Positions 3,459-43,525 of a stretch of DNA of 49,788 bases are shown in pieces (position 1 is the first letter of the stretch; the number at the start of each line of letters is the position of its first letter). The stretch covers positions 1-49,788 of the IMG/VR virus record IMGVR_UViG_2718217868_000004; one strand, 5' to 3'. Source of the stretch: a virus. Taxonomy: Duplodnaviria > Heunggongvirae > Uroviricota > Caudoviricetes. The position numbers and the translations under genes were made by a program. A model generated the notes under the pieces. The model saw only the letters and a list, made by a program, of their open reading frames with translations, ran no database searches and was not told the DNA's origin.

Positions 3459-3692
3459 TTATTTGCAGGTTGTTTCGGTAAATGTATTCGCACTTACCCA
3501 GCGCCAGCTGAAAGGATATCCAGCCCGGTACTGCGTCTGGTTGTTTTGTTTACGCACACCGTAAATCTGAACCGTAGTTTCCTGACCGCCAACGATTGCA
3601 GTGCCGCTGCAAACTGGTTCCTGTTTCTCAATTACGCCAGCGCATCCTGTAAGCATGACAGCGCCTGCCATGCAGATAATCAGTTTTCTCAT
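3459..3692 (-). CDS. Small outer-membrane lipoprotein, possible Llp/Cor-type superinfection-exclusion factor
   Basis: 77-aa ORF with signal peptide and lipobox LTGC; mature part about 61 aa with two further Cys; located between the J-proximal genes and the side tail fiber; the function is inference from size and position. Confidence 0.6.
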   Translation of the reverse strand: MRKLIICMAGAVMLTGCAGVIEKQEPVCSGTAIVGGQETTVQIYGVRKQNNQTQYRAGYPFSWRWVSANTFTETTCK

Positions 3693-9640: not shown

Positions 9641-10411
9641 TTATCTGGAAAAAAGCACGGTGGCTGGATAGCCCCCAAAATCAAGGGTCGCGGTATTAGG
9701 CTCTGCCAGCCCGGCACCAAACCGCTTACGGCAGTCACTCAGGCAGCCGCCGCACACATCCAGCGCCGGGTCAGCGACAGGATTACCCTTCGCATCAAAA
9801 TACGCCGTGCCGTTGTAGGTGCATCCATCGCCGCTCCGGTACTGCCCGCGTAGCGCCCATTCGCAGAGCGAGGTGATTTGTCTGGTTGGGATAACAAGCC
9901 CCTGCAAGTCTGCGGGGCTACTGAGTGACCAGGTAACTACCTCGTCGTCTTCGGAGGTTTTGGTGTCAAGCCAGAAGGTCTGAAGTGTGAACATTGACGA
10001 ATCAGCTGTAGGGTTTGCGCCACCAGGGTAATTCACAGCATCGAGATAGACCGCATAGGTATCGATAATGCTCACCCTGGCGTTAACCATGTCCTTAAAT
10101 TGGAGGCACAGCGCCGTGATATGACCGTCGAGGTTTGAGACGCTGAGAGACGGCTCCGCCGCCTGGTCTGTTGAAAGCTCCAGGCCTGCTACCTGAAACG
10201 GCCAAAAATCGTAGGTATTGCCACCGAATACGATTGGCTTTGGTCCGAGCTTTTCTTCATCACCATTGGCAGCGTCGATCTCTTCCGGTGTATGGGGGAA
10301 AGGTGCGTAGTGGAAACGGTGAATACCGCCACTGAACTCTGAGGCGTCAACTTCAACCAGGCGTACTCTGCCACCCGGTGCCAGCATCGCCGCCTGATCG
10401 ACTAATGCCAT
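9641..10411 (-). CDS. Minor tail protein L
   Basis: 256 aa, lambda L position with C-terminal Cys cluster. Confidence 0.8.
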   Translation of the reverse strand: MALVDQAAMLAPGGRVRLVEVDASEFSGGIHRFHYAPFPHTPEEIDAANGDEEKLGPKPIVFGGNTYDFWPFQVAGLELSTDQAAEPSLSVSNLDGHITALCLQFKDMVNARVSIIDTYAVYLDAVNYPGGANPTADSSMFTLQTFWLDTKTSEDDEVVTWSLSSPADLQGLVIPTRQITSLCEWALRGQYRSGDGCTYNGTAYFDAKGNPVADPALDVCGGCLSDCRKRFGAGLAEPNTATLDFGGYPATVLFSR

Positions 10412-10761
10412 TATGCATACACTCCGTAAGCCCGTTTGATGGTGAACGTCAATTCAGCAAACTTGCTGCTGATCTGATTTTTCCGTACGGAATCGGCGAC
10501 TACCCGATAAAGCCCCTTCTCTTCTCCCGGCGGCGTGATGATGAAGGCCTTCACGGTATGAGCCAGGAGGAAGTCGCGCACTGCGTTTACCTCAGACTCA
10601 CTGCCAACGTGTTTCATTGGCACCTGGATCGCCGTGGAGTTGATGCCGTTCTCGGCCACCTGCTCATAGCCATCACCGAACTGCGCAGCGCGCACCGTTT
10701 GACTATATTCAATCGCCCCAGCACCGAGCTGCGAGCGCCAGCTGTATGTTTCAACTGCCAT
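10411..10761 (-). CDS. Minor tail protein M
   Basis: 116 aa, lambda M position; preceded by hairpin, T-run, RBS, ATG arrangement. Confidence 0.75.
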   Translation of the reverse strand: MAVETYSWRSQLGAGAIEYSQTVRAAQFGDGYEQVAENGINSTAIQVPMKHVGSESEVNAVRDFLLAHTVKAFIITPPGEEKGLYRVVADSVRKNQISSKFAELTFTIKRAYGVYA

Positions 10762-10924
10762 ATTTGCTCCATAAAAAAAGCCACCCGAAGGTGGCTACTG
10801 TCTGAATATCAGGATGTTACAAATCAAAATACCTGGTTATGTTGTGGATTCAGCCCGCCAGTGGTGGGCACTGGCGCATTAATTGCCGACGGTGCGGCTG
10901 ATGGCCTCGGTATAACAGGAGTTT

Positions 10925-11155
10925 ATGATGAGCTTTAACAAAGAAGACCAGCAGGATGAAGCCTTAGCGTTTTTATTAGCTGTTGCCACTGTCGAATCAG
11001 GTGATGCTGGAGCTTTTCGCAAGCGCGTTACTGAGTATATGACGAAGGCCTACGGTGGAGATACATCAAAAATGACGATGCAAGAGCAAGGTCGTGCCGA
11101 GGCGGTATCCAAATTGTACGCCAGGGCTGATAACATCTACCATCGCATCAAATAA
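10925..11155 (+). CDS. Hypothetical small protein on the opposite strand inside the tail operon, followed by its own terminator
   Basis: 76-aa ORF; strong plus-strand hairpin CCCCGG-ttaag-CCGGGG plus TTTT right after the stop. Confidence 0.5.
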   Translation: MMSFNKEDQQDEALAFLLAVATVESGDAGAFRKRVTEYMTKAYGGDTSKMTMQEQGRAEAVSKLYARADNIYHRIK

Positions 11156-11161
11156 TGCTTT

Positions 11162-11182
11162 GCCCCGGTTAAGCCGGGGTTT
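11162..11182 (+). terminator. Rho-independent terminator for the 10925-11155 gene
   Basis: Perfect 6-bp GC stem followed by a T-run. Confidence 0.55.
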
Positions 11183-11426
11183 TCAATCCGGCAATTGCCT
11201 TACTGGCATATTCTTTGGCGCGTGCTTCGACTTCGGCAAAAGAGCTGCCTGGATTGAAATCCTCCTGATAGATAAACACCAGTTCATGAGGCGCATTGAT
11301 TTGCTCCAGCTTGCAAACTGTAATTTTGGTTCTGACAGTCTTTATCATTTTAATTTCTAAATCGGGATCGAAGCTTACAGATTCAAATCGCGAACCCATT
11401 TCAGGGAATCCTACAGTCATTTCCAT
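11169..11426 (-). CDS. Hypothetical protein (cassette between tape measure and M)
   Basis: 85-aa ORF with AGGAGAA RBS 5 nt upstream of the ATG. Confidence 0.5.
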   Translation of the reverse strand: MEMTVGFPEMGSRFESVSFDPDLEIKMIKTVRTKITVCKLEQINAPHELVFIYQEDFNPGSSFAEVEARAKEYASKAIAGLKTPA

Positions 11427-11456
11427 AACGTTCTCCTGCCTCTCGGCTACAGATAT

Positions 11457-11480
11457 AAAAAAGCCCCGCGTATGCGAGGC
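11457..11480 (-). terminator. Intrinsic terminator, GCCCCGC-N4-GCGAGGC family
   Basis: Minus-strand stem GCCUCGC/GCGGGGC with one G-U pair followed by a U-run; near-identical copies near 28887 and 30758. Confidence 0.5.
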
Positions 11481-11529
11481 TTAATATTGGTTGAAAGCAT
11501 GGGAGGGAAGGTCATCAAACCATTTTGGT

Positions 11530-11979
11530 TTAACTTCCATTCATTTCTTCAAGGCGGTAATCAGTCTTCCCATTTTTATCTTCGATGCATATAGCTCTGA
11601 ATTTCTGCTCAAGCCCAAATTTGTTCTTGGCACTAAATTCCTGAGTTGCGTAGAACTTCCCGTCATTACTCTGCCACCTTTTTGCGCCAAACACAGACAT
11701 ATCCAGAGTGCTTTTGTTGATGACCGACATTCTAACGTAGGCCTCACACGCCCCCCGAAGTTCATCCAGTTTCTTGTCAGATAACTCTTTGGCTTCCTTT
11801 TGTTTCTTTTCCGCCTCAGTTGGCTTATTAACTACAGCAGCAATGCCGACCACAACGATAAGAAGAATAAGCATCCCGATGGTTTTGAGAATCTTCTTCA
11901 ATATCTTTTTAAGCATTATCATCCCCTGATCACTATGGTTTTCCTCATAATAACCAGGGGATGTGAGAATGTAACGCAA
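11530..11979 (-). CDS. Hypothetical membrane-anchored protein; probable true start near 11922
   Basis: N-terminal TM helix (IGMLILLIVVVGIAAVV) then a Lys/Glu-rich domain; AT-rich DNA; the track start is TTG, an internal ATG with GGGGA RBS is more likely. Confidence 0.5.
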   Translation of the reverse strand: MRYILTSPGYYEENHSDQGMIMLKKILKKILKTIGMLILLIVVVGIAAVVNKPTEAEKKQKEAKELSDKKLDELRGACEAYVRMSVINKSTLDMSVFGAKRWQSNDGKFYATQEFSAKNKFGLEQKFRAICIEDKNGKTDYRLEEMNGS

Positions 11980-11989
11980 CTCTATGATA

Positions 11990-14900
11990 TTACTTTTTCA
12001 CAAAGCGGCCACCAATCGCTCCATCATCTCTGATTGCTCTGACGATGCCTTCTTGGACATACTGCTTCACACGATCAGCCAGCGCGCGAGCAGCCGCGTC
12101 ACCACCACCGCTGGTATTTGCAGTCGCGTTACCTTTGTTATCGACATAAATATCAACGTTGATTTGATGTCCGGAACCACCAGCGCCTTGGGCACGCACA
12201 CCCAACCGCCCTGCTGAATCTTTAGCTAACGGCATAATAGCTTCCGGCCCTGCCTCTCCAAAGACGCCGCCCTTGGCAAACTTAGAGGCCCCCTGGAAGG
12301 AGAAGTATTGCGGGGAATCATAGACACCGTTCACATACTGGTGAAGGCCCGCTGATTCGTAGACACCACCCTTAGCATTCCTGACTGGCCCGACGAAATC
12401 TGGACTGCCGATACCGCCACCTTGAGGATTTGAAGAGCCACTTATCCACCCCATTGCCGCCTGCACCGCATAGGCCACCATGAGGCGGTTCGTCACATCA
12501 AGGATCATCTTGAGCATGGATTTGCCAAACTCTTTAACCGACGCAGTGCCGGTTGTCATGAGTTCGGTTAGCATGTCGGACAATCCTGTCAAAGTGGAGC
12601 TGGCAACGTTCTTAACGGCGTCGTATGTATTGGTAGCAGCGTCGAGATATTCATTCCAGCCACTTACCGCACCTGCTTTCCAGTCGCCCCGTAATTTGTC
12701 CTCTTCGGCATAATATTTCCTGAGAGCCGCCAGTTCTTTTTTATAACCGGCATCGTCAAGCTTACCGCCACCGTTGAGCCAGCCCTGGCGAAGCTGCGCC
12801 TCTTCCATCATGCGCTGCGTTTGCCGACTGCTGAGACCTGCACTATCACGCAATGCATCGGTTTTTTCCGACATCTGCGTGACGTATTTATTCGCCTGCT
12901 GCGCCAGGCCGTTAATCTTCTGCTGCGCCTCTACTTCCTTGTTCTTCTGATCCACCACCTTGGCGGCGTTCAGAATGGCCTCACGGCTCGACAGTAGAGA
13001 TTTCTCCTGGGCGGTCAGCGCGCGTGTTTTGGCAGCCTCATCCAATTCAGCAAAGCGAGATTGCTGTTTGCTGAATTCGGTATATCTGACCTGAGTCTCC
13101 CCAGTCTTGCGCAACGTTTCGAGTGTTTCAGTTAACGTTCTGGCCTGGGCGCGGTAGTTCTCAAGAGTGCGATCGCCAGCATCCAGCGTGGCTTTTGCCT
13201 CTTTGGTCTTTTTGGCTGAGTCTTGTGCAAGCTTCGAGACTGCGTCTCTTGATTCTCGACTTGTTCCTCCATCACCTTTTACGTTAGACCCTCGCGCTTC
13301 AGCCTCATAGTTTGCCTGTGCGTTAGGCGCAGTGACGCGCTTCCAAAGCTCGTTATAGCGTTTTTTGTTCGCCTCAATCTCTTTGTCCGCCTCCGCTCCA
13401 GCCTTTTTCATTGCCTCAACGTCCATGCCGAGGAAATTAGCCAGCGCACCGCCACCCGGGATTTTGTCTGCCCAGCCAGCGATGGTGCTGGTGAACTTGG
13501 CGTCCAGAGAGGTGATATTGAGGAACAAGTCTTTGATCGAGGATTTAACCAGTTCGAAAATATCAATGATCTGGTTTCCCCATGCGCGCACGGTAATACC
13601 TATATCGCCAAAGGTGTCAGAAGCGCTCTTTTTAAGGTTTTCCCACGTTTGACCGATATTATCGGTCGCTTTGTTGGTCTCCTCTGCGCGCTTTGCCATG
13701 ACGCCTGCAAACAGCTCAATAGCTTCGGTAACAGCCGCCTGCTCACCCTTCTGCTTACGTAGCTGGATAATGTGCTTGATCATGGCTTCATCAACGAAAC
13801 CATATTGTTCATTGAGGCTGGCAAGCCCTTTAACCGGATCGCTGACAATCTTTCCGAAGTCGCTTATTGCCGCTTTGGTATCATTTCCGGCCTTACCCAT
13901 GAGGGTGATGGTCGTTGCGACCTGCTTCATCTGGCTTGCGGTATATTTGCCAGTATCATTCAACGTAACCAGCGTATCGACGGTGGAGCTAATCGATGTA
14001 TTCGTCTTGCCAGCCACTTCCTCAGCGGCCTGGTTGAGCTGCTGCATTGAGGAGAAGCCAGCCCCACCCATCATGATGACAGAGCGTGCCACCTGCTCAA
14101 ATTGCTCCGAGGAGTTATACGCTGCGGCAGCCAGCAGGCCGATCGTGCCAATCAGCCCACCAAGTGCGATTGTGGTAGGGTTAATCATCCCAGCCATGCT
14201 GCGGATGTATTCGCCGACGCCGGACAGCGCCCCCTGAACCGAGCCGAACTGGTCTTTAATCTGCCCGCCCTGTTGCAGCAGAATCAGGAACGGCGACTGA
14301 CCGCCAGCCAGCTGCGTGGCGATATCGGTGAATTGCGCCGGAAGCGTGCGCATTGCTGCGCTGTACTGACCAACGGAGATTCCAGCGCGCCGGGCAGCAG
14401 CTTCCTGCCGGGATAGCGCCTCTGGTAGTACGTCAGCGACACCAGAGAGGCGCTCACGCGTCTGGTTAAGGATTGTGTTGAAGTGCTCGAACTGAGCACC
14501 GTTAATGCGCCCAGCTTCGAAATGTGCCACCAGCTGTGCGTGCTGTTCATCCAACGAATTGAACGCGCGGATAGTCGGGTCGATGGATCCAAGAAGGTTC
14601 TTTAACGCTGCGGACTGCTTCTCTGCCGCCTGGGTAGCGGCTAATTCGGCCTGAGCACGCGCCGCGGCTTCTCCGGTGTCGGTCAGCTTGAGGCGGGTGT
14701 CATCCAGGATTTTGTTGTATGCCTGAAAGGTATCGGTATCCAGGAAACCTTTGGCCTGGAATTTCCGCAGCGATTCTTGCTGCTCATCCAGGCGGTTTAA
14801 GGCCTTGGTAACCGGGTCGATATTCTCCAGCAGCCCTTTGAGCGCGTTCTGCTGCTCCTTGAGTCCTTCGCTGCCTTGCTTCGCAGATTCAGCGCCAGCG

Positions 14901-15037
14901 CGAAACACGCTATTCAGATCATCTGCTTTATCTACAGCACCGGCCGCCGCCTGGCCGAGTTTATCCAGTTCGTTGCTGGCTGTTTTCAGGTCAGAAACAT
15001 CGGCCCGCAAAGTAATCGAGGCGATCTGGTCTGTCAT
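11990..15037 (-). CDS. Tail tape measure protein
   Basis: 1015 aa, Ala/Gln/Lys-rich coiled-coil-like sequence with Gly-rich C-terminus; follows the G/GT chaperones. Confidence 0.9.
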   Translation of the reverse strand: MTDQIASITLRADVSDLKTASNELDKLGQAAAGAVDKADDLNSVFRAGAESAKQGSEGLKEQQNALKGLLENIDPVTKALNRLDEQQESLRKFQAKGFLDTDTFQAYNKILDDTRLKLTDTGEAAARAQAELAATQAAEKQSAALKNLLGSIDPTIRAFNSLDEQHAQLVAHFEAGRINGAQFEHFNTILNQTRERLSGVADVLPEALSRQEAAARRAGISVGQYSAAMRTLPAQFTDIATQLAGGQSPFLILLQQGGQIKDQFGSVQGALSGVGEYIRSMAGMINPTTIALGGLIGTIGLLAAAAYNSSEQFEQVARSVIMMGGAGFSSMQQLNQAAEEVAGKTNTSISSTVDTLVTLNDTGKYTASQMKQVATTITLMGKAGNDTKAAISDFGKIVSDPVKGLASLNEQYGFVDEAMIKHIIQLRKQKGEQAAVTEAIELFAGVMAKRAEETNKATDNIGQTWENLKKSASDTFGDIGITVRAWGNQIIDIFELVKSSIKDLFLNITSLDAKFTSTIAGWADKIPGGGALANFLGMDVEAMKKAGAEADKEIEANKKRYNELWKRVTAPNAQANYEAEARGSNVKGDGGTSRESRDAVSKLAQDSAKKTKEAKATLDAGDRTLENYRAQARTLTETLETLRKTGETQVRYTEFSKQQSRFAELDEAAKTRALTAQEKSLLSSREAILNAAKVVDQKNKEVEAQQKINGLAQQANKYVTQMSEKTDALRDSAGLSSRQTQRMMEEAQLRQGWLNGGGKLDDAGYKKELAALRKYYAEEDKLRGDWKAGAVSGWNEYLDAATNTYDAVKNVASSTLTGLSDMLTELMTTGTASVKEFGKSMLKMILDVTNRLMVAYAVQAAMGWISGSSNPQGGGIGSPDFVGPVRNAKGGVYESAGLHQYVNGVYDSPQYFSFQGASKFAKGGVFGEAGPEAIMPLAKDSAGRLGVRAQGAGGSGHQINVDIYVDNKGNATANTSGGGDAAARALADRVKQYVQEGIVRAIRDDGAIGGRFVKK

Positions 15038-15324
15038 TATTTCGTCTCCTTATGCATTACCTTGAGAGCCTCGCTTTCCATAATTTGAAGGTCAGCCATG
15101 CAGGCCGCCGCATCCTCAACCCCGTGTAACTCGAACATCCAGGGGAGAACGTTGTAATCAAGGCCGGTCGCCCCGCTCGCGCCGACTCGCCACTGGGTCG
15201 CCAGGGAAGAGAAGATGGTGAAGGACCTCCACACCGAGGGCAGGATCCCCACCTCTTCCTCCACGTCCTCAGGCGTCAAACCAAAAGCGCTCAGCTCCGC
15301 GAGCGTCGGTCCCGGCGTATACAA
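15037..15324 (-). CDS. Tail assembly chaperone frameshift extension (T-like part of a G-T fusion)
   Basis: ORF is in the -1 frame relative to G and stays open across the A-AAA-AAC heptamer at the end of G. Confidence 0.65.
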   Translation of the reverse strand: MYTPGPTLAELSAFGLTPEDVEEEVGILPSVWRSFTIFSSLATQWRVGASGATGLDYNVLPWMFELHGVEDAAACMADLQIMESEALKVMHKETK

Positions 15325-28938: not shown

Positions 28939-29103
28939 TCAGGCATCGCTTGCAAGCTCAACCAAATCTTTGAAGTCCTGGCACATATCCAGTCGATGAC
29001 CATGATCATCGACAAAGTTATAACTTTTGAATAGCTCTACGATTTCCTCGGGACTCTTCCCATTCAAACGAGGAAACTGCTTTGATTCGTCAACCTGTTT
29101 CAT
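28939..29103 (-). CDS. Hypothetical small protein (track ORF extends to 29199)
   Basis: Internal ATG with GGAGA RBS; overlaps the start of the plus-strand KTSC gene only slightly. Confidence 0.35.
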   Translation of the reverse strand: MKQVDESKQFPRLNGKSPEEIVELFKSYNFVDDHGHRLDMCQDFKDLVELASDA

Positions 29104-29297
29104 CTTCAAATCTCCAATCAGTAGGTTATGACCAGGCCACTTCGACGCTGGAAATTGCATTCCATAGCAGTGGCATTTATCAATACTCTCGGGTTCCATC
29201 TACCGTGTACACGGCACTAATGAATGCGTCGTCAAAAGGCCAGTATTTTGATGCCCACATCAAAAAAGCTGGCTACCCTTATCGCAAAGTTGGCTAA
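29082..29297 (+). CDS. KTSC domain-containing protein
   Basis: 71 aa; VSSSNLQSVGYD...LEIAFHSSGIYQYSRVP matches the remembered KTSC domain pattern; opposite strand to the late operon. Confidence 0.55.
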   Translation: MIRQPVSSSNLQSVGYDQATSTLEIAFHSSGIYQYSRVPSTVYTALMNASSKGQYFDAHIKKAGYPYRKVG

Positions 29298-32959: not shown

Positions 32960-33555
32960 CCCGCAAAGCTCATGAGCTGCGATGCGGCGTTTTCCGCTTC
33001 ACGCTGGTCTTTGAATGCCCGGGACAATACCCAGCGCCACAGAACATCGAGCGCGGCTTTGTACAGCTGCTGGAACTCGGTTTCGTCCATGTTGGCGAAG
33101 GCAATGCTGCGGGGGTGTTTGCGAAGGGTGCCGTCGGGAAGCTGAATGGCGTCGTAGTGACCAGACTCGATGATCACCCATGCACGATAAGCATCATAGG
33201 ATTTGCAGATGCTAATGCTACCGGCTCGCTTATCAGCGATACGCTCCAGATATTGCTCAGCTGCATCCAGGAGTGCAGCTTCACTTCCCGCGAATGAGGC
33301 AAGGAATTTGGCGTAGCCGGTTACCAGTTTGCGCTCGTTGGAGGAGATCGCCCCTCCAGTAGGTTCCCAGTATTCAAACCCGAGATTCAGGAGCGCAAAA
33401 AAACGGCGATGGAATGCGGGATTCCTCACCTGACGAAATTCGGCTACCAGCACGGCGCCGAGTTTGATTTTTGATTGCAGAATATCGCTGGTCTCCGGCG
33501 TAGCGGGGATCAGGATTCCTGATGATTGCTTAATGAGTTGTAGTTCGTGCGCCAT
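32956..33555 (-). CDS. Nin-region protein (DUF1367-like)
   Basis: 199-aa ORF in the lambdoid nin-like block; family call is from memory. Confidence 0.4.
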   Translation of the reverse strand: MAHELQLIKQSSGILIPATPETSDILQSKIKLGAVLVAEFRQVRNPAFHRRFFALLNLGFEYWEPTGGAISSNERKLVTGYAKFLASFAGSEAALLDAAEQYLERIADKRAGSISICKSYDAYRAWVIIESGHYDAIQLPDGTLRKHPRSIAFANMDETEFQQLYKAALDVLWRWVLSRAFKDQREAENAASQLMSFAG

Positions 33556-33656
33556 GGTACTCTCCGTGGCGCATCAAGTTGTCAGTTGTTCAGGCTGACA
33601 CTGACATTATGTACAGCTGATAATGGAAAATCAAATGTTGCTTTTAGCTGAACTGA

Positions 33657-33911
33657 TTAATATTTGTAGCGGTTTTCCGGGAGAAACGCGTATTCGTATG
33701 TGAAGTTGAATGCCTCGTTTTCAGTGTTAAATCGGCGTTCGGTGATATCACTCCAGCGTCCTCCCCTGAAATACTTCTGAGCAACCCACTTTCCCTCAAA
33801 CGGGAATACGGCATATGCACCGACATACCGATTATCATTATGCGGATCGGGATATGAGTCACCTTCTGCCAGAACGTAAAACTTGATTCCGCTTACAATG
33901 AGGCAGCCCAT
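33657..33911 (-). CDS. Hypothetical protein in low-GC island
   Basis: 84-aa ORF; start/stop abuts the next gene; AT-rich surrounding DNA. Confidence 0.45.
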   Translation of the reverse strand: MGCLIVSGIKFYVLAEGDSYPDPHNDNRYVGAYAVFPFEGKWVAQKYFRGGRWSDITERRFNTENEAFNFTYEYAFLPENRYKY

Positions 33912-34168
33912 TACTTCTTCTCATTCTGCGCAGCCATATCCAGATAACGCGAATCGGATGCTTTCGGCAGCGTCAGGCTCTGCTCGCGGTAGTAACGAAC
34001 GCGCTCCATGAAGTATTCGCGAAGATTCTCTGGCTGCTCGCGGGCCACCTGCTCAGCGATAACTGGCATGTTTAGGCGTTCTTTGTACGCCACACCAGAA
34101 GCAGCAAGGTCAACGTTCACCTTGTCCTGTTCTTCTTTTGATTTTGCTGCGATGTTATGGCTAGACAT
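33911..34168 (-). CDS. Hypothetical protein in low-GC island
   Basis: 85-aa ORF co-oriented and contiguous with its neighbour. Confidence 0.45.
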
Positions 34169-34260
34169 GATGAATCCCCCTCAATGCTTTGAGAAGGATT
34201 ATACAAAGAAAAACCGCCGAAGCGGTTTTGTAGTTTTCAAATATTCATCTCAATATCTGG

Positions 34261-34527
34261 CTAGTTGATATCAAATGCCAGTGGATTTGGGCGAACAGCG
34301 TTTATTTGTCCAATGACCCATTGATGATTGTAGGCGGTTCCTACAGGTAGAAGATACCCGTAAGTACCATCTTTAAGCGTCACATGCATACACAAATGGT
34401 CTCCACCATCTATATCGTAAATTGAGCCTTGAGGAATAAATTCCTCAGTTTTAATCAGTGTTATGCCGTTATTGCGTGGAAATATATAGTGATGCATTTT
34501 ATAGCTCCTTTGTCGATTGGAGCCCAA
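34261..34527 (-). CDS. Hypothetical protein in low-GC island
   Basis: 88-aa ORF directly downstream of the methyltransferase. Confidence 0.45.
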   Translation of the reverse strand: MGSNRQRSYKMHHYIFPRNNGITLIKTEEFIPQGSIYDIDGGDHLCMHVTLKDGTYGYLLPVGTAYNHQWVIGQINAVRPNPLAFDIN

Positions 34528-34596
34528 TTATATCAAGTTTAAATCTACGTCATTGAAGTAGCAGGATTTGTTACGTCCTGCCCTGAAACTCAGACT

Positions 34597-36585
34597 CTAA
34601 GCCGCTATTTGTTTCGATTGGCATAGTTCCGGCAAATTAGCACGCACCAGCGCTTCAGCGAACGGCGGTGGCACCGCGTTACCGCAGCGGGCAACCTGTT
34701 TATCCTTCGCGTACTTCTTGCCCCGGTAGTCCTGGTCGATGATGTACCAGTCCGGGAAGCCCTGCGCCCGGTACAGTTCGCGCGGCTGTAACATGCGCAT
34801 ACCAATATCAACAATGCGATACGTCACGCCATCGATCACCACCAACCCGGTACAATCCTCACCACAGTATTTGCGCAGGAACGCCAGCGTTTGTTGCGCG
34901 CGTTCTTCGTCGTACTCATCTACGGCAAGATGAGTTTCAACGTTCCCTACATGCAGGCCACCAGCCGTGACAGTCGGCATTGGCGCGTCGGTGCGTTGTC
35001 CATCCCGGCAGGTTCCGCGCAATTTAACCAGGTGAGAAGCAACCACAGCATGGTGATCGACGGTGGTCACAGAATGCATCGGCTCATCCATCCCCACTCC
35101 GGCGCCCTGGTAATTCCCGCCGTAATGTTTAATGAGATGTGCAGCGGCAACCGCAAATTTATTACCGCCAGCGGTGACCGTGCCAAGCGGGCTATCAAGT
35201 TTCAGCACACGCGGCTCTTGCCCTGGACGTTCGCCATAACCCATCTGAATCAGCGTTGGCGTCACCAGCTGTGATTTACCGCCACCGCCCGCGGTGATAG
35301 TTGCGCTCGGTTCGTCTGCCCGGTGGCCGATACTGGCACCAAACTGCCGGGCAATAACCGGAGCCACCAGGCAACTGCGCGATTGCTTCAGAATAGTGTG
35401 AGCGGGTTTATTTAGTGGGCGCGGCTTCGCCTGATATTCACTGCCCCCATTGCCAGCCAGGAACGGAGTGATCGCCGCCTCAACCAACCCAAGAGCATGA
35501 CCATTGCCGCCCGGGCGCACCGACGTCCCAGCTGTGACAGTGGGCACAGGTTCGGTAACGGGCTGCCCGGTTGCGCCAGTACGGAACTTTGTCAGGTGTG
35601 GAACGGCTAACGCGTAGCCGTGGGTTTTCGTAATGGTCTGCAGAGGCTCTCTCAGCGCCTGCCCACGGAAACAGTCGTATTTCCCTTTGGTCGTCGTGTG
35701 GTTGCACTTGACGATGAACGGCGACGCGCTCTCGATCACAAACCGCTGGATGCCACGAGCGATGCGTTTGAGCGTATTTTCAGCCAGTGGCTTTTTGCGG
35801 TCGAATATCGACGGTGCCGGAATGGTCCAGTCGATACACTCCGCAGCTGTACGCCATGGCGCCAACTTTCCACTCTGCACAGCTGGAGATTTCGGGTCGC
35901 CGTGGGTCGGGTCCGGCCAGGTCACCGGCATACCATCGCAACGCATTACCATGAAGAAACGCTTCCTGATGGTCGGTGCGCCAAAGTCGCAGGCGCGCAG
36001 CTCACGATGATCAACAGCGTAACCCAGCCCGGCCACCAGTTGCTGCGCCAGTTCGCCGTCGGCAGTAATACCCAGGAACTCGCAGCACTCCGCCAGCGCC
36101 GGATGACCGGCAGGAATACCACCGGATAGCATGCCGCAGAAAGCCTCGAAGGTCTCACCAGTACGCAGGGGATTTGGACGTAACCCACCATCAGCAGATT
36201 CGATAAGCGGCCCCCAGGTGCGGAACTCTTCAACGTTCTCCAGCATCATCACACGGGGACGTACCGCCAGCGCCCAGCGAATGACAATCCACGCCAAACC
36301 ACGAATCTCTTTCTCTACCGGCTTTGAACCTTTAGCCTTTGAGAAGTGACGGCAATCAGGGGAAAACCATGCCAGCCCCACCGGGCGGCCAGCGGTCGCT
36401 ACGATGGGATCGACATCAAACACCGATTCGCAGTAGTGCAGTGTATCCGGGTGGTTCGTAGTGTGCATCGCAACAGCGTTCGGGTCGTGGTTAATCGCAA
36501 TATCCACACTACGACCGATCGCCAGCTCAATGCCCGTGCTCGCCCCGCCGCCGCCGGCAAAGTTATCAACGATGATTTCTCTCAC
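34597..36585 (-). CDS. Orphan DNA cytosine-5 methyltransferase; start at GTG overlapping the upstream stop
   Basis: Motif I FAGGGG, PC-type catalytic motif (SPDC) and ENV motif (LENV); GGAGAAA RBS before a GTG that overlaps the upstream TGA; no restriction endonuclease gene nearby. Confidence 0.8.
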   Translation of the reverse strand: MREIIVDNFAGGGGASTGIELAIGRSVDIAINHDPNAVAMHTTNHPDTLHYCESVFDVDPIVATAGRPVGLAWFSPDCRHFSKAKGSKPVEKEIRGLAWIVIRWALAVRPRVMMLENVEEFRTWGPLIESADGGLRPNPLRTGETFEAFCGMLSGGIPAGHPALAECCEFLGITADGELAQQLVAGLGYAVDHRELRACDFGAPTIRKRFFMVMRCDGMPVTWPDPTHGDPKSPAVQSGKLAPWRTAAECIDWTIPAPSIFDRKKPLAENTLKRIARGIQRFVIESASPFIVKCNHTTTKGKYDCFRGQALREPLQTITKTHGYALAVPHLTKFRTGATGQPVTEPVPTVTAGTSVRPGGNGHALGLVEAAITPFLAGNGGSEYQAKPRPLNKPAHTILKQSRSCLVAPVIARQFGASIGHRADEPSATITAGGGGKSQLVTPTLIQMGYGERPGQEPRVLKLDSPLGTVTAGGNKFAVAAAHLIKHYGGNYQGAGVGMDEPMHSVTTVDHHAVVASHLVKLRGTCRDGQRTDAPMPTVTAGGLHVGNVETHLAVDEYDEERAQQTLAFLRKYCGEDCTGLVVIDGVTYRIVDIGMRMLQPRELYRAQGFPDWYIIDQDYRGKKYAKDKQVARCGNAVPPPFAEALVRANLPELCQSKQIAA

Positions 36586-41094: not shown

Positions 41095-41322
41095 TCAGGC
41101 TACTTTTGGTTTGCTGATTTCAAGAATTTGGGTGGTGGTAAAGCGACCACCTGAGGCCTCAGCAATTTTCGATGCATAAGCTGTCTCACCGGTGTAATCA
41201 GTACGTGGCAAGCACCCACTATTGATCCACTTGTAAATTGCTCGCGGAGTCCGCTCGCATGCTTTGGCCACCACGGGTACGCGAATCAATTTGATGATTT
41301 CGCCAAGGCTTGTTGGTTGCAT
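41095..41322 (-). CDS. Cro/YdaS-like HTH regulator
   Basis: 75 aa with HTH (ERTPRAIYKWINSGCLP), divergent from the cI-like repressor. Confidence 0.7.
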   Translation of the reverse strand: MQPTSLGEIIKLIRVPVVAKACERTPRAIYKWINSGCLPRTDYTGETAYASKIAEASGGRFTTTQILEISKPKVA

Positions 41323-41337
41323 TTTTTAACCCTCAAT

Positions 41338-41376
41338 ATGAACTGTAAGTACATATTATGTCGGAACTGATAGTTC
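41338..41376. promoter_or_regulatory. OR-like operator region: two imperfect palindromes (ATGAACT-N3-AGTACAT and GAACT-N3-AGTTC) between cro and cI
   Basis: Directly visible palindromes; the same 17-bp motif recurs near 43331-43347. Confidence 0.5.
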
Positions 41377-42113
41377 ACGCAAGAGATATTATGATTGAAC
41401 CTATGGTTCAGGAAGAAAAAGCGCGAAAAGACTTTTCCCATAGGCTAGCGCTGGCCTGCGATAAAGCTGGTTTGCCGGTTCATGGTCGTCAGGCTGAGAT
41501 AGCCAAAAAGATGAAGTTGACACCAAAGGCCGTAAGCAAATGGTTTAACGGGGAATCAATTCCAAGACGCGGGAAGCTGCAAGAGCTTGCTGCGAGTATT
41601 GGTACAACTTCAACTTACCTGTTAGGTGACAGCGAGGTTGATGGAATATCTGAGGGACGCTTGCAGAAATCGACAGAAATATTTCGCATAGATGTGCTCA
41701 ATGTATCTGTCAGTGCAGGCCCGGGCGTGATCAATAGCGAGTTCGTGGAGGTGCTTCGCTCTGTGGAATACTCAGTTGAAGATGCGCGCCAAATGTTCAA
41801 CGGACGAAAGCAGGAACAAATCCGCATCATCAACGTCCGCGGAGACAGCATGTCTGGCACGATAGAGCCGGGTGATCTGCTTTTTGTCGATATCAGCATC
41901 CAACACTTTGATGGTGATGGAATTTACGCTTTCCTGTACGACGAAACAGCTCATGTTAAGCGACTTCAGAAGATGAAAGACAAACTACTGGTAATCTCAG
42001 ACAACCAGACCTATCGCCCGTGGGAGCCAATTGAGAAGGAAGAGATGAACAAGATTTTCGTCTTCGGAAAGGTGATCGGCAGCATGCCGCAGACCTACAG
42101 GAAGCATGGTTAG
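41358..42113 (+). CDS. CI-like repressor with HTH and S24 (LexA-like) autopeptidase domain; probable start at ATG 41391
   Basis: HTH (GRQAEIAKKMKLTPKAVSKW), S24 catalytic Ser (GDSM) and Lys (HVKRLQK); AAGAGA RBS before 41391. Confidence 0.9.
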   Translation: MSELIVHARDIMIEPMVQEEKARKDFSHRLALACDKAGLPVHGRQAEIAKKMKLTPKAVSKWFNGESIPRRGKLQELAASIGTTSTYLLGDSEVDGISEGRLQKSTEIFRIDVLNVSVSAGPGVINSEFVEVLRSVEYSVEDARQMFNGRKQEQIRIINVRGDSMSGTIEPGDLLFVDISIQHFDGDGIYAFLYDETAHVKRLQKMKDKLLVISDNQTYRPWEPIEKEEMNKIFVFGKVIGSMPQTYRKHG

Positions 42114-42181
42114 CAAACTAACAGTGGCCAGATGATACGTTTGGGTGATTATTTTTATTTTTCACAGCAATAGGATGATTT

Positions 42182-42523
42182 ATGACACAGTTTCAACTTG
42201 CGTTAATCGCCAGAGAAGTTGATGGAGAAGTCATCCATCTTCGCACCAAAGACGGATACATCAATGCCACATCAATGTGCAAGTCTGCAGGGAAGCTACT
42301 TGCCGACTATACACGACTAAAAACAACACAAGATTTTTTTGATGAATTATCACGCGATATGGGGATTCCCATATCGGAGTTAATTCAATCATTTAAAGGC
42401 GGAAGAGCAGAGAATCAAGGGACTTGGGTTCATCCAGACATCGCAATTAATTTAGCTCAGTGGCTATCTCCAAAATTTGCAGTGCAAGTATCGAGATGGG
42501 TGCGTGAGTGGATGTCAGGCTAA
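42182..42523 (+). CDS. KilA-N domain protein (standalone)
   Basis: 113 aa with KilA-N pattern (DGYINATSMCKSAGK...GTWVHPDIAINLAQWLSPKF); RBS AGGATGA; no terminator between cI and this gene. Confidence 0.75.
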   Translation: MTQFQLALIAREVDGEVIHLRTKDGYINATSMCKSAGKLLADYTRLKTTQDFFDELSRDMGIPISELIQSFKGGRAENQGTWVHPDIAINLAQWLSPKFAVQVSRWVREWMSG

Positions 42524-42562
42524 AGAGCGCCTGCCGAACTCCCTATCCACCTTAAGCGGTAT

Positions 42563-42943
42563 ATGACAAACCGAGGCAGGGCTCCTCATACGCACTTTTC
42601 TATGCTTAATGAACTGACGTTTAACTTGGTTGCGCCACTTGAACAAGCCGGATATACGCTGCCTGAAAAAATGGTTCCTGATATTTCAGAAGGTAGGGTT
42701 TTCTCGCAATGGCTCCGTGACAACCGGGGTATTGAGCCGAAGACATTCCCAACATATAACCATGAGTACCCAGATGGCCGGACATTCCCGGTACGTCTAT
42801 ACCCAAACGAATATCTTGCAGATTTCAAACAGCACTTCAACGAAGTGTGGCTGCCTCAGTACGCTCCTAAATATTTTGCTGAACGAGACCAAAGGGCATT
42901 GACGTTGATTGAGAAAATCATGCTGCCTGACCTTGATTCCTAA
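42563..42943 (+). CDS. Hypothetical protein, last gene of the cI operon
   Basis: 126-aa ORF followed within 10 bp by a strong terminator. Confidence 0.5.
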   Translation: MTNRGRAPHTHFSMLNELTFNLVAPLEQAGYTLPEKMVPDISEGRVFSQWLRDNRGIEPKTFPTYNHEYPDGRTFPVRLYPNEYLADFKQHFNEVWLPQYAPKYFAERDQRALTLIEKIMLPDLDS

Positions 42944-42952
42944 ATGCCACAG

Positions 42953-42978
42953 CCCGGCCACCGCGCCGGGTTTTTATT
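42953..42978 (+). terminator. Rho-independent terminator ending the cI - KilA-N - orf126 operon
   Basis: CCCGGC-caccgc-GCCGGG stem followed by TTTTTATT. Confidence 0.65.
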
Positions 42979-43198
42979 GCCCTTTCCTCACGAACTCCGC
43001 CGCATCCCGCAATACACCTTTGTGAATCATATTGCCCACGGTTTTTCGCTTCGCTTCCAGTCGATCGACAATAGCCTCACAGTCAATCACCACACCGTCG
43101 ATTATCAACTCAACAACCGCCCCACCAATCTCACCAGCTATGAAAGCTGCGCGATCTTCCAGCAATTCATCACGTGACATATCCATACCTAAGCCCAT
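42974..43198 (-). CDS. Hypothetical small acidic protein convergent with the cI operon
   Basis: 74-aa ORF; weak RBS; real start may be the internal ATG near 43186. Confidence 0.35.
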   Translation of the reverse strand: MGLGMDMSRDELLEDRAAFIAGEIGGAVVELIIDGVVIDCEAIVDRLEAKRKTVGNMIHKGVLRDAAEFVRKGQ

Positions 43199-43259
43199 AG
43201 CAATACCCTGTTTGGTGTTTTTTTGAGCATAGCAAGACTAGAGAAAAAAATAAATAATC

Positions 43260-43350
43260 TTAAAGTTCATATTGTTATGCGTTTATGAACTTGCCACACC
43301 ACTTAAATGTACTATTGGTACTTTACTTCAATGAACTTATAGTACATTAT
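43260..43350 (+). promoter_or_regulatory. OL/PL-like region: operator copy ATGAACT-TAT-AGTACAT plus additional AGTTCAT/ATGAACT half-sites and promoter-like hexamers
   Basis: Same 17-bp motif as at OR; TTTACT and TACATT hexamers flank it; upstream of the recE operon. Confidence 0.45.
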
Positions 43351-43525
43351 CATCCCATCGCGAAACACTAAGCGCATCAAGTTCAAACGTTCCGCCAGCC
43401 TGGCGACAAGGGCAAACACAGAAGTGAGCTTCGCGGTGGTGAATTGCAGAGTTAAAACGCTCAACCGTGAAGATCAGCGCCGCGGCACCACCAGCGAAGT
43501 TCACTCAGAAAAACTGGAGAACATC

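Follow-up and report, generated by a model that had tools for sequence, protein, structure and literature searches.

What are the small genes that separate the tape measure gene H from the minor tail gene M in a lambdoid prophage, and do they belong to the tail operon in which they lie? The prophage in question is IMG/VR virus record IMGVR_UViG_2718217868_000004, analysed over its full length of 49,788 nucleotides (hereafter the window). The whole window is a complete lambdoid prophage, 100% identical to sequence in E. coli strains H5 and H6, and its late operon lies entirely on the minus strand. An earlier note on this DNA had described positions 10762-11990 as a single inserted cassette of three genes, independently expressed and accessory to the phage rather than part of its virion. 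We find that the H-M junction is an accessory-gene hot spot of the HK639-like lambdoid tail operon, occupied here by two independent morons: one encodes a membrane-anchored protein (open reading frame A, ORF-A), and the other is a convergent gene pair homologous to genes 22 and 23 of phage HK97. That both are cargo of this hot spot and not virion parts is very probable.

The H-M junction and its two modules

The first claim of the earlier note, some 1.2 kb of AT-rich DNA between the tape measure gene and M, is borne out. The G+C fraction of 10762-11990 is 0.443 against a window mean of 0.532 (standard deviation 0.034), the lowest value among all 1229-bp windows of the 49.8 kb. It is 0.42 in module 1, the ORF-A unit, and 0.46 in module 2, the gene pair, with 0.54-0.55 in the flanking tail genes. 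All three ORFs of the slot (11530-11979 on the minus strand and the two smaller ones listed in Table 1) are genuine genes under purifying selection, as judged from Nei-Gojobori ratios of nonsynonymous to synonymous substitution (dN/dS) against divergent copies. Further stretches of low G+C (~0.44-0.46) were seen at ~33350-34600, which holds a DNA polymerase III theta homologue and small hypothetical genes, and at ~41250-43400, the repressor/KilA-N region.

The three genes do not form one unit. Prophage ABWA45 encodes the same M protein (WP_023277160.1, of which identical copies occur in prophages with different H-M cargo). Compared with it, the window has an extra block of ~683 bp, module 2, placed exactly between the T-tract of the upstream terminator (T1) and the ribosome-binding site (RBS) of M; in ABWA45, the RBS of M follows T1 directly. 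The block brings a second terminator T-tract at its own end, and both junctions share GGCTTTTTTAT. Module 2 is ~99.7% identical in L007 and VREC0761, and prophages with unrelated upstream genes keep ~99.7% identity to the window from T1 on and are unrelated to it before T1. In one prophage the swapped upstream cargo is a 137-aa (amino acid) lipoprotein; in another it consists of two proteins, one of 74 aa and a zinc-ribbon membrane protein of 171 aa. Because the identity starts exactly at T1, the ORF-A unit and the 22/23 unit are sorted independently of one another, with recombination at the terminators; both modules pass from phage to phage by exchange at conserved sequences of terminator and leader. 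As read from these alignments, the slot consists of two modules that differ in history and meet at a terminator common to both: the three genes of the earlier note are real, the single cassette is not.

Each module is absent, or swapped for unrelated genes, in prophages with identical or near-identical M proteins, and closely related tails need neither of them. Both also occur outside lambda-type tail operons, in the immI accessory region of P22-like phages: of two such mnt/arc/ant loci (L020 3440-5523 and L023 17-3120), one carries the gp22/gp23 pair and the other an ORF-A homologue, downstream of ant. Lambda-type tail-operon slots and P22 immI thus exchange the same morons.

Occupation of the junction was surveyed in 157 loci with M homologues by measuring how far the M start lies from the tape measure stop, loci with at least 75% M identity being taken as close and those below 75% as distant. 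Among the distant homologues (n=48) this gap was 20 nt or less in 39, with a median of -1 nt. Among the close ones (n=99) it was that short in none; the median was ~1.2-1.3 kb and the maximum 4.3 kb, and the end of the tape measure gene was confirmed by homology in all 89 testable close loci. The expectation that H normally leads straight into M holds for HK97, for loci L017 and L021 and for the 39 distant homologues, and fails for the close relatives. The insertion is not peculiar to this prophage: every close relative has cargo at the junction. ORF-A is the commonest occupant (26 of 89 loci), and other first-position cargo consists mostly of unrelated lipoproteins. Elsewhere the slot contains PD-Lambda-1, as a 537-aa reverse-strand gene with DUF4041 and T5orf172 (E 6.5e-201; IMG/VR locus L121, and two other loci too), a Fic/Doc protein, a DUF4236 protein and, in HK639, the toxin YafO. 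Like the P2/P4 hot spots and the lambdoid moron sites bor, lom and cor, the slot is a fixed position between core genes with variable cargo that includes defence genes. It differs from them in its shared expression leader and shared terminator, so that different ORFs are plugged into the same signals. We found no description of the H-M site or of its leader in the literature searched.

Morons are recognised as extra DNA of differing composition that has its own promoter and terminator and is expressed while the prophage is repressed (Cumby, Davidson & Maxwell 2012, PMC3594210, citing Juhala et al. 2000). The slot is extra DNA between otherwise adjacent genes: H abuts M in relatives, and for module 2 the comparison with ABWA45 is exact to the single base. 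Its composition is foreign to the flanking genes, and it has predicted terminators of its own (T1, T3, and the hairpin with UUUU of the reverse gene). Independent expression, also claimed by the earlier note, is a prediction: for ORF-A it is drawn from a promoter-like element and T1, for gp23 from a leader, a weak promoter-like site and a terminator. A structural protein should be conserved in presence and position together with its tail module, and the earlier note had named such conservation across related phages as the sign of a structural role; what is found instead is replacement by unrelated genes beside an identical M. The positions of all features are collected in Table 1.

Table 1. 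Features of the H-M slot, its borders and the prophage genes referred to in the text (window positions).
Feature	Position	Strand	Remarks
Integrase gene	48.6-49.8 kb		
Q-type antiterminator gene	31.1-32.0 kb		upstream of the slot within the prophage
Tape measure gene H, 1015 aa	11990-15037	-	upstream slot border; Pfam TMP_2 1e-52, Tape_meas_lam_C 1.6e-19; phrog_24 6e-227
Module 1	11457-11989	-	leader, 128-aa ORF-A gene and T1
Predicted sigma-70-like promoter of ORF-A	11947-11975	-	-35 GTTACA 11975-11970, 17-nt spacer, -10 TATTAT 11952-11947; 9/12 match in promoter scan
Leader hairpin, 18 bp	11920-11963	-	5' arm 11963-11946 pairs with 3' arm 11937-11920, which holds Shine-Dalgarno AGGGGA 11927-11922
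ORF-A gene, 128 aa (most likely start)	11530-11916	-	basic N-terminus, one transmembrane helix (~residues 12-30), periplasmic domain, two conserved cysteines
Terminator T1	11457-11482	-	hairpin 11482-11461, U6 tract to 11457; -15 kcal/mol, z -4.45; 3' end of module 1
Module 2	~10774-11456 (~683 bp)	both	HK97 gene 22/23 homologue; terminator T-tract at each border
gp22-like gene, 85 aa	11169-11426	-	acidic, soluble; RBS AGGAG 6 nt upstream; 93% amino acid identity to HK97 Gp22
Reverse-gene terminator	11162-11183	+	8-bp GC hairpin plus UUUU, -16.2 kcal/mol; annotated terminator in HK97
gp23-like reverse gene, 76 aa	10925-11155	+	soluble, helical; 93% identity to HK97 Gp23
Conserved reverse-gene leader	10797-10924	+	weak sigma-70-like site: -35 10816-10821, -10 10838-10843
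Terminator T3	10773-10796	-	hairpin 10796-10779, U7 tract; -13.4 kcal/mol, z -3.55; directly 5' of the M RBS
Minor tail gene M	10411-10761	-	downstream slot border; PF05939 1.8e-19; phrog_14

The shared leader and ORF-A

Independently of what the first cargo ORF encodes, 63 of the 99 close loci have 5' of it a stretch of ~55 nt with the consensus CATCCCCTGGTTAT...AACCAT...ATCAGGGGATGAT ahead of ATG or GTG. In all 48 distinct leaders with different cargo a -10 element (TATCAT, TATTAT or TAATAT) stands 29-31 nt 5' of the start codon, and in 28 of the 48 GTTACA is found exactly 17 nt upstream of it. This predicted promoter lies within an 18-bp hairpin whose 3' arm contains the Shine-Dalgarno (SD) sequence, and the same helix forms at loci with different cargo. 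Folding energies are -32.6 kcal/mol (z -5.59) for the long, read-through ORF-A transcript and -3.4 kcal/mol (z +0.37) for one that begins just downstream of the -10; the latter is unstructured and has its SD free. With the promoter inside the hairpin, then, the short mRNA would have a free RBS.

Across 46 distinct leaders, 88.8% of cells are paired in register versus 29-51% when slid; 18 cells are double changes, and none of 500 shuffles attained either the double-change count or the covariation score. At columns 18-33 the pairing is U-A in 21 sequences and C-G in 15, and one invariant G.U pair works only on the sense strand. A first test on a 9-bp version of the hairpin was uninformative since its pairs are nearly invariant; the signal is present only with the full 18-bp helix. 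An Rfam scan of 10600-12100 gave no match at the gathering score. For the idea that the hairpin silences ORF-A in late transcripts we would give slightly less than an even chance.

As to the protein, the membrane anchor that the earlier note had predicted for the frame 11530-11979 stands, and its start is moved. Translation most likely begins at ATG 11916 (128 aa) and not at TTG 11979 (149 aa), because the RefSeq start is there, the match to phrog_35526 runs from residue 23 of the long form, and most homologues have 128-130 aa. The gene is under clear constraint (dN/dS 0.05-0.16). Its product has a lysine-rich N-terminus and then one hydrophobic helix; in the structural model (predicted local distance difference test score, pLDDT, 84) a long helix is packed against a four-stranded antiparallel sheet, the modelled fold class of the periplasmic domain being cystatin/NTF2-like. 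Two conserved cysteines fit a periplasmic location. The family comprises 72 clusters, all from Enterobacteriaceae and all annotated as 'hypothetical', and a profile search of 1.8 billion representatives recovers its C-terminal domain as a widespread unnamed module with the motif C..SVxNPSTLD...FSAKNxFGLE..C. The domain always follows a membrane anchor, which is sometimes preceded by a cytoplasmic zinc ribbon. The same layout (N-terminal transmembrane anchor plus periplasmic NTF2-like domain) is known from VirB8, TraE and DotI, of which ORF-A would be a minimal version with one helix and four strands, at 1-16% identity; since unrelated cystatin/NTF2-like proteins match equally well, this is a resemblance of fold only. 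Other slot occupants were considered as possible carriers of the ORF-A domain and rejected, the 171-aa zinc-ribbon protein, the 137-aa lipoprotein and the F3 lipoprotein giving hhalign probabilities of ~1% or less.

The nearest precedent for such a protein at such a site is HK97 gp15, an inner-membrane superinfection exclusion protein encoded by a moron adjoining the tape measure gene (PMC3594210); proteins of its type stop the genomes of superinfecting phages from entering but leave the receptor open. ORF-A resembles it in being a small membrane protein whose gene forms a self-contained unit, with a terminator of its own, next to the tape measure gene. The two differ in that gp15 has 62 aa and is encoded upstream of H, whereas ORF-A has 128 aa, is encoded downstream of H and has a folded periplasmic domain; exclusion by ORF-A is only predicted. 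By this analogy we tentatively suggest that ORF-A acts in superinfection exclusion.

It might instead be an envelope factor of lysogenic conversion that confers serum or stress resistance, adhesion or protection from colicins or toxins, after the example of Bor and Lom, moron-encoded envelope proteins with host-benefit roles (PMC3594210). A membrane-anchored periplasmic domain of binding type would suit such a factor, and so would the lipoproteins without assigned function that make up other first-position cargo. Nothing specific speaks against this role, which we nevertheless consider unlikely, as adjacency to the tape measure gene, the defence genes found in the slot and the precedents of gp15 and Cor tilt the choice towards exclusion. 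The window itself encodes, at 3459-3692 (minus strand) downstream of J, cor, annotated as 'phage exclusion lipoprotein Cor', which gives the prophage at least one known exclusion moron outside the region studied here.

The gp22/gp23 pair

Window positions 10757-11449 have 90.4% nucleotide identity to HK97 14452-15145, the stretch that encodes HK97 gene 22 ('moron product' in the annotation) and gene 23 ('reverse moron product'; AF069529 / NC_002167). The pair has accordingly counted as a known moron ever since annotation of the HK97 genome. The homology begins at the gp22 RBS and ends at the start codon of whichever tail gene follows. In the window, as in HK97, the genes are adjacent and convergent and both proteins are homologous to their counterparts, the reverse gene has its terminator, and the block closes with a final terminator followed by the RBS of the next tail gene; the T3 element likewise precedes J in HK97 and M in HK639. 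The site differs: HK97 carries the pair between I and J, with H leading directly into M, whereas in the window the pair is at H-M. The gene ends differ as well. The annotated Gp22 (120 aa) and Gp23 (86 aa) of HK97 overlap (L001 8476-8976), because gene 22 reads CAA where its TAA stop would be and gene 23 has lost its stop through a 2-bp indel; the window ORFs do not overlap, and outside HK97 the shorter, non-overlapping forms are found (gp23 75 aa, gp22 85-96 aa).

Selection on the pair is strong, with dN/dS of 0.14-0.18 for the gp22-like gene and 0.015-0.047 for the gp23-like gene (wrong frames >2), which is the most constrained gene of the region. In 5.8 billion proteins the gp22 family has 12 clusters and the gp23 family 3, one of them on 579 contigs. 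The AlphaFold2 model of gp22 (pLDDT 44) is unusable.

For the forward gene, the earlier note had pointed to an internal terminator before it and to an RBS of its own. Both are there; no promoter-like site was found in the 34 nt between T1 and the gp22 start, and no forward terminator of its own. The gene appears to have no promoter of its own, and is read most simply as part of the late transcript. As no forward terminator lies between gp22 and T3, late transcripts would cross gp23 antisense. For the convergent plus-strand gene, the terminator described before is confirmed as a hairpin with UUUU, and the length is probably 75 aa instead of 76, counted from the second ATG at 10928. On the minus strand this hairpin has no U-run and contains the gp22 stop codon; with the UUUU only on the plus strand, it ends the reverse gene and not the forward gene.

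The reverse gene is preceded by a leader of 132 nt, in which identity among copies is 80-84%, against 48-77% at the third codon positions of the same copies. In three of three copies the -10 of its weak promoter-like site ends 84-85 nt 5' of the ATG. The leader also contains a conserved candidate hairpin, GCCAGTG-GTGGG-CACTGGC (10857-10877, plus strand; alignment columns 95-116), with a few compensatory changes and several G.U pairs that work on the gp23 sense strand only.

The two genes are adjacent and convergent in every context examined. Beyond the window the pair is at H-M in ten further loci, at I-J in HK97, L017 and L021, and beside an I-sized gene in L018 and L019. A P22-like phage has it in its immI region, downstream of arc/ant, with a gp23 nearly identical to the window copy and a gp22 only 58% identical. 

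Three published systems offer a model for such a pair. In phi80 Tai/Ati (PMC11364771) and S. aureus Tha/Ith (PMC11087260), a reverse-oriented immune gene is combined with a late-expressed antagonist; both are experimentally shown 'noncontiguous operons', in which effector and antagonist belong to mutually exclusive lysogenic and lytic states (PMC11364771, PMC11087260). In JBD26, Tab is an 83-aa protein encoded within the late operon, and anti-Tab is made from the late operon (PMC10884400). TaiEcA/AtiEcA of phi80 and Tha/Ith are matched in layout, with an antisense gene within the operon (gp23, plus strand) and its partner adjoining (gp22); Tab/anti-Tab is a related case without the antisense arrangement. 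The position is different, gp22/gp23 lying inside the tail operon and the tai genes mostly upstream of the packaging module. Going by these analogues, gp23 and gp22 could be an effector and its antagonist, a specific proposal that we regard as doubtful.

An addiction module, either toxin-antitoxin-like or a type I-like antisense pair that stabilises the prophage, would likewise account for two small soluble proteins that are always inherited together and whose convergent transcripts would overlap, and the toxins YafO and Doc occupy the same slot elsewhere. Neither protein resembles any toxin or antitoxin family, however, and type II pairs are normally co-directional operons. The contrast between a near-invariant gp23 and a gp22 down to 58% identity would suit equally well a toxin with its antitoxin and a partner that adapts to a phage-specific target, and we hold addiction to be improbable.

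Still weaker is the view that the reverse gene and the hairpins serve mainly to tune the next tail gene (M here, J in HK97) through terminators or antisense transcription, the proteins being secondary. Module 2 always ends with T3 and the RBS of the next tail gene, it precedes the host-specificity gene J in HK97, L017 and L021, and the noncoding gp23 leader is conserved above the synonymous rate; yet both proteins are under strong purifying selection, the module also follows ant in a P22-like phage, and most related tail operons work without it. We regard tail tuning as very improbable. Equally remote is the possibility that the three proteins help to assemble the tail or are accessory parts of the virion, specific to this tail type (for instance chaperones or minor tip proteins), and are expressed from the late operon alone. 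In its favour are the location of the genes within the tail operon, the shared orientation of ORF-A and gp22 with that operon, the passage of a Q-antiterminated polymerase through the terminators that would be expected, and the cargo found at the junction in every close relative. Against it, prophages with an identical M carry unrelated cargo or lack each module, HK97-type tails have H directly before M, both modules recur in P22-like immI, one gene is on the opposite strand, the G+C is foreign, and HK97, in which genes 22 and 23 were annotated as morons, is viable. The accessory nature claimed by the earlier note is upheld on these grounds, with gp22/gp23 as recognised HK97 morons, the swaps beside an identical M and the immI copies as its main support.

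A model for expression and function

The explanation that we favour for both morons, inferred mechanism included, has in our estimate a probability of about 0.55. In the lysogen, the late operon would be silent, and ORF-A would have a sigma-70 promoter of its own within the leader hairpin to drive it. This would give a short mRNA that ends at T1 and is translated from a free RBS. The protein would sit in the inner membrane with its small cystatin/NTF2-like binding domain facing the periplasm, where it would most likely exclude superinfecting phages at the envelope or at the step of DNA entry, as HK97 gp15 and Cor do. At the same time gp23 would be made from its own weak promoter, its transcript stopping at its own terminator. 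From their predicted signals, expression of both ORF-A and gp23 in the lysogen seems probable.

Polymerase modified by lambda Q passes terminators. During lytic growth, the Q-modified polymerase would in the same manner read through T1 and T3. The long transcript would include the 5' arm of the hairpin, burying the ORF-A RBS and reducing translation. Only this late transcript would yield gp22, and the same transcript would run antisense across gp23, so that gp22, antisense transcription or both might switch gp23 off once the prophage itself goes lytic. With gp22 late only and antisense transcription over gp23, the pair would behave as a 'noncontiguous operon'.

Several results weigh against this explanation. 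The three slot proteins have no significant match in Pfam, NCBIfam, PADLOC-DB v2 or, by sequence, the PDB; ORF-A gives no BLASTP alignment to HK97 gp15 at E<=100; and no homology of gp22/gp23 to Tai/Ati, Tha/Ith or Tab/anti-Tab is detectable by tblastn (E<=1, 50,697 phage records, phi80 included) or PADLOC, the tblastn searches returning only HK97 and one weak unrelated match. With neither family matches nor homology to the precedents, the functions proposed here are drawn from architecture and neighbourhood only. We found in the literature no report on function or expression of HK97 gp22/gp23, and no expression data for H5 or H6. On the side of the signals, the -35 is poor in 15 of the 48 distinct leaders, and promoter-like sites in the region are at chance level (3 found, 2.7 expected). 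The leader sequences are related, which makes the covariation of the hairpin suggestive and not proven: it comes largely from one pair, possibly a single inherited event, and related sequences can exceed shuffles without structure. The arms of the leader could be conserved simply as promoter and RBS. For the hairpin of the gp23 leader, the RNAalifold covariation term over six copies is unfavourable.

The most far-reaching version of the favoured explanation joins all of its parts: the H-M slot as a plug-and-play cassette whose promoter-in-hairpin leader would restrict translation of the cargo, in most cases an envelope protein, to the lysogen, ORF-A as founder of a new periplasm-facing exclusion family, and gp23 as an effector with self-protection through the late antagonist gp22. 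That all of this should hold together is quite unlikely.

Some further features of the prophage were seen in passing. The tape measure ORF is intact at 1015 aa, and its DNA is identical between the window and strain H6; RefSeq gives the H6 gene (NZ_CP010170.1 2817913-2820342) as a 597-aa coding sequence plus a pseudogene fragment. With the ORF whole and the DNA identical, the split is an annotation artefact, and we reject a divided tape measure gene in H6. A KTSC-domain gene at 29082-29297 (plus strand) lies amid minus-strand late genes, between the lysis genes and the terminase region; it is a further reverse-oriented gene within the late operon and a candidate for a 'noncontiguous operon'. 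A 249-aa hypothetical gene stands between L and the C40 peptidase gene (K) in VREC0761 and ABWA45 (L004 6941-7690 and L005 6242-6991) and is missing there from the window and from HK639; the L-K gap may be a second accessory slot of the same tail operon. At 1-1998 of the window, a recombinase-family (invertase-like) gene adjoins two tail-fibre-domain genes of opposite orientation, and the arrangement resembles the invertible host-range switches of the Gin/Cin/Pin type.

It is chiefly through morons that prophages alter the phenotype and the phage resistance of their hosts, yet most morons have no assigned function. HK97 is the phage in which they were first defined, and its genes 22 and 23 have been unexplained since 2000. 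To that record the present analysis adds a second and a third insertion context of the pair together with its strict linkage, the H-M hot spot with its shared promoter/hairpin leader and terminator, and a structural description of the ORF-A family. Genes 22 and 23 emerge as an obligately linked forward/reverse unit that moves among at least three kinds of phage site, which leads to a specific hypothesis of effector and antagonist. The H-M hot spot, with PD-Lambda-1, Doc and YafO among its cargo, is a source to be mined for candidate exclusion factors such as ORF-A. A promoter placed inside an RBS-occluding hairpin could confine the translation of a moron to lysogeny and, if true, would be a general design principle for genes that reside in late operons.

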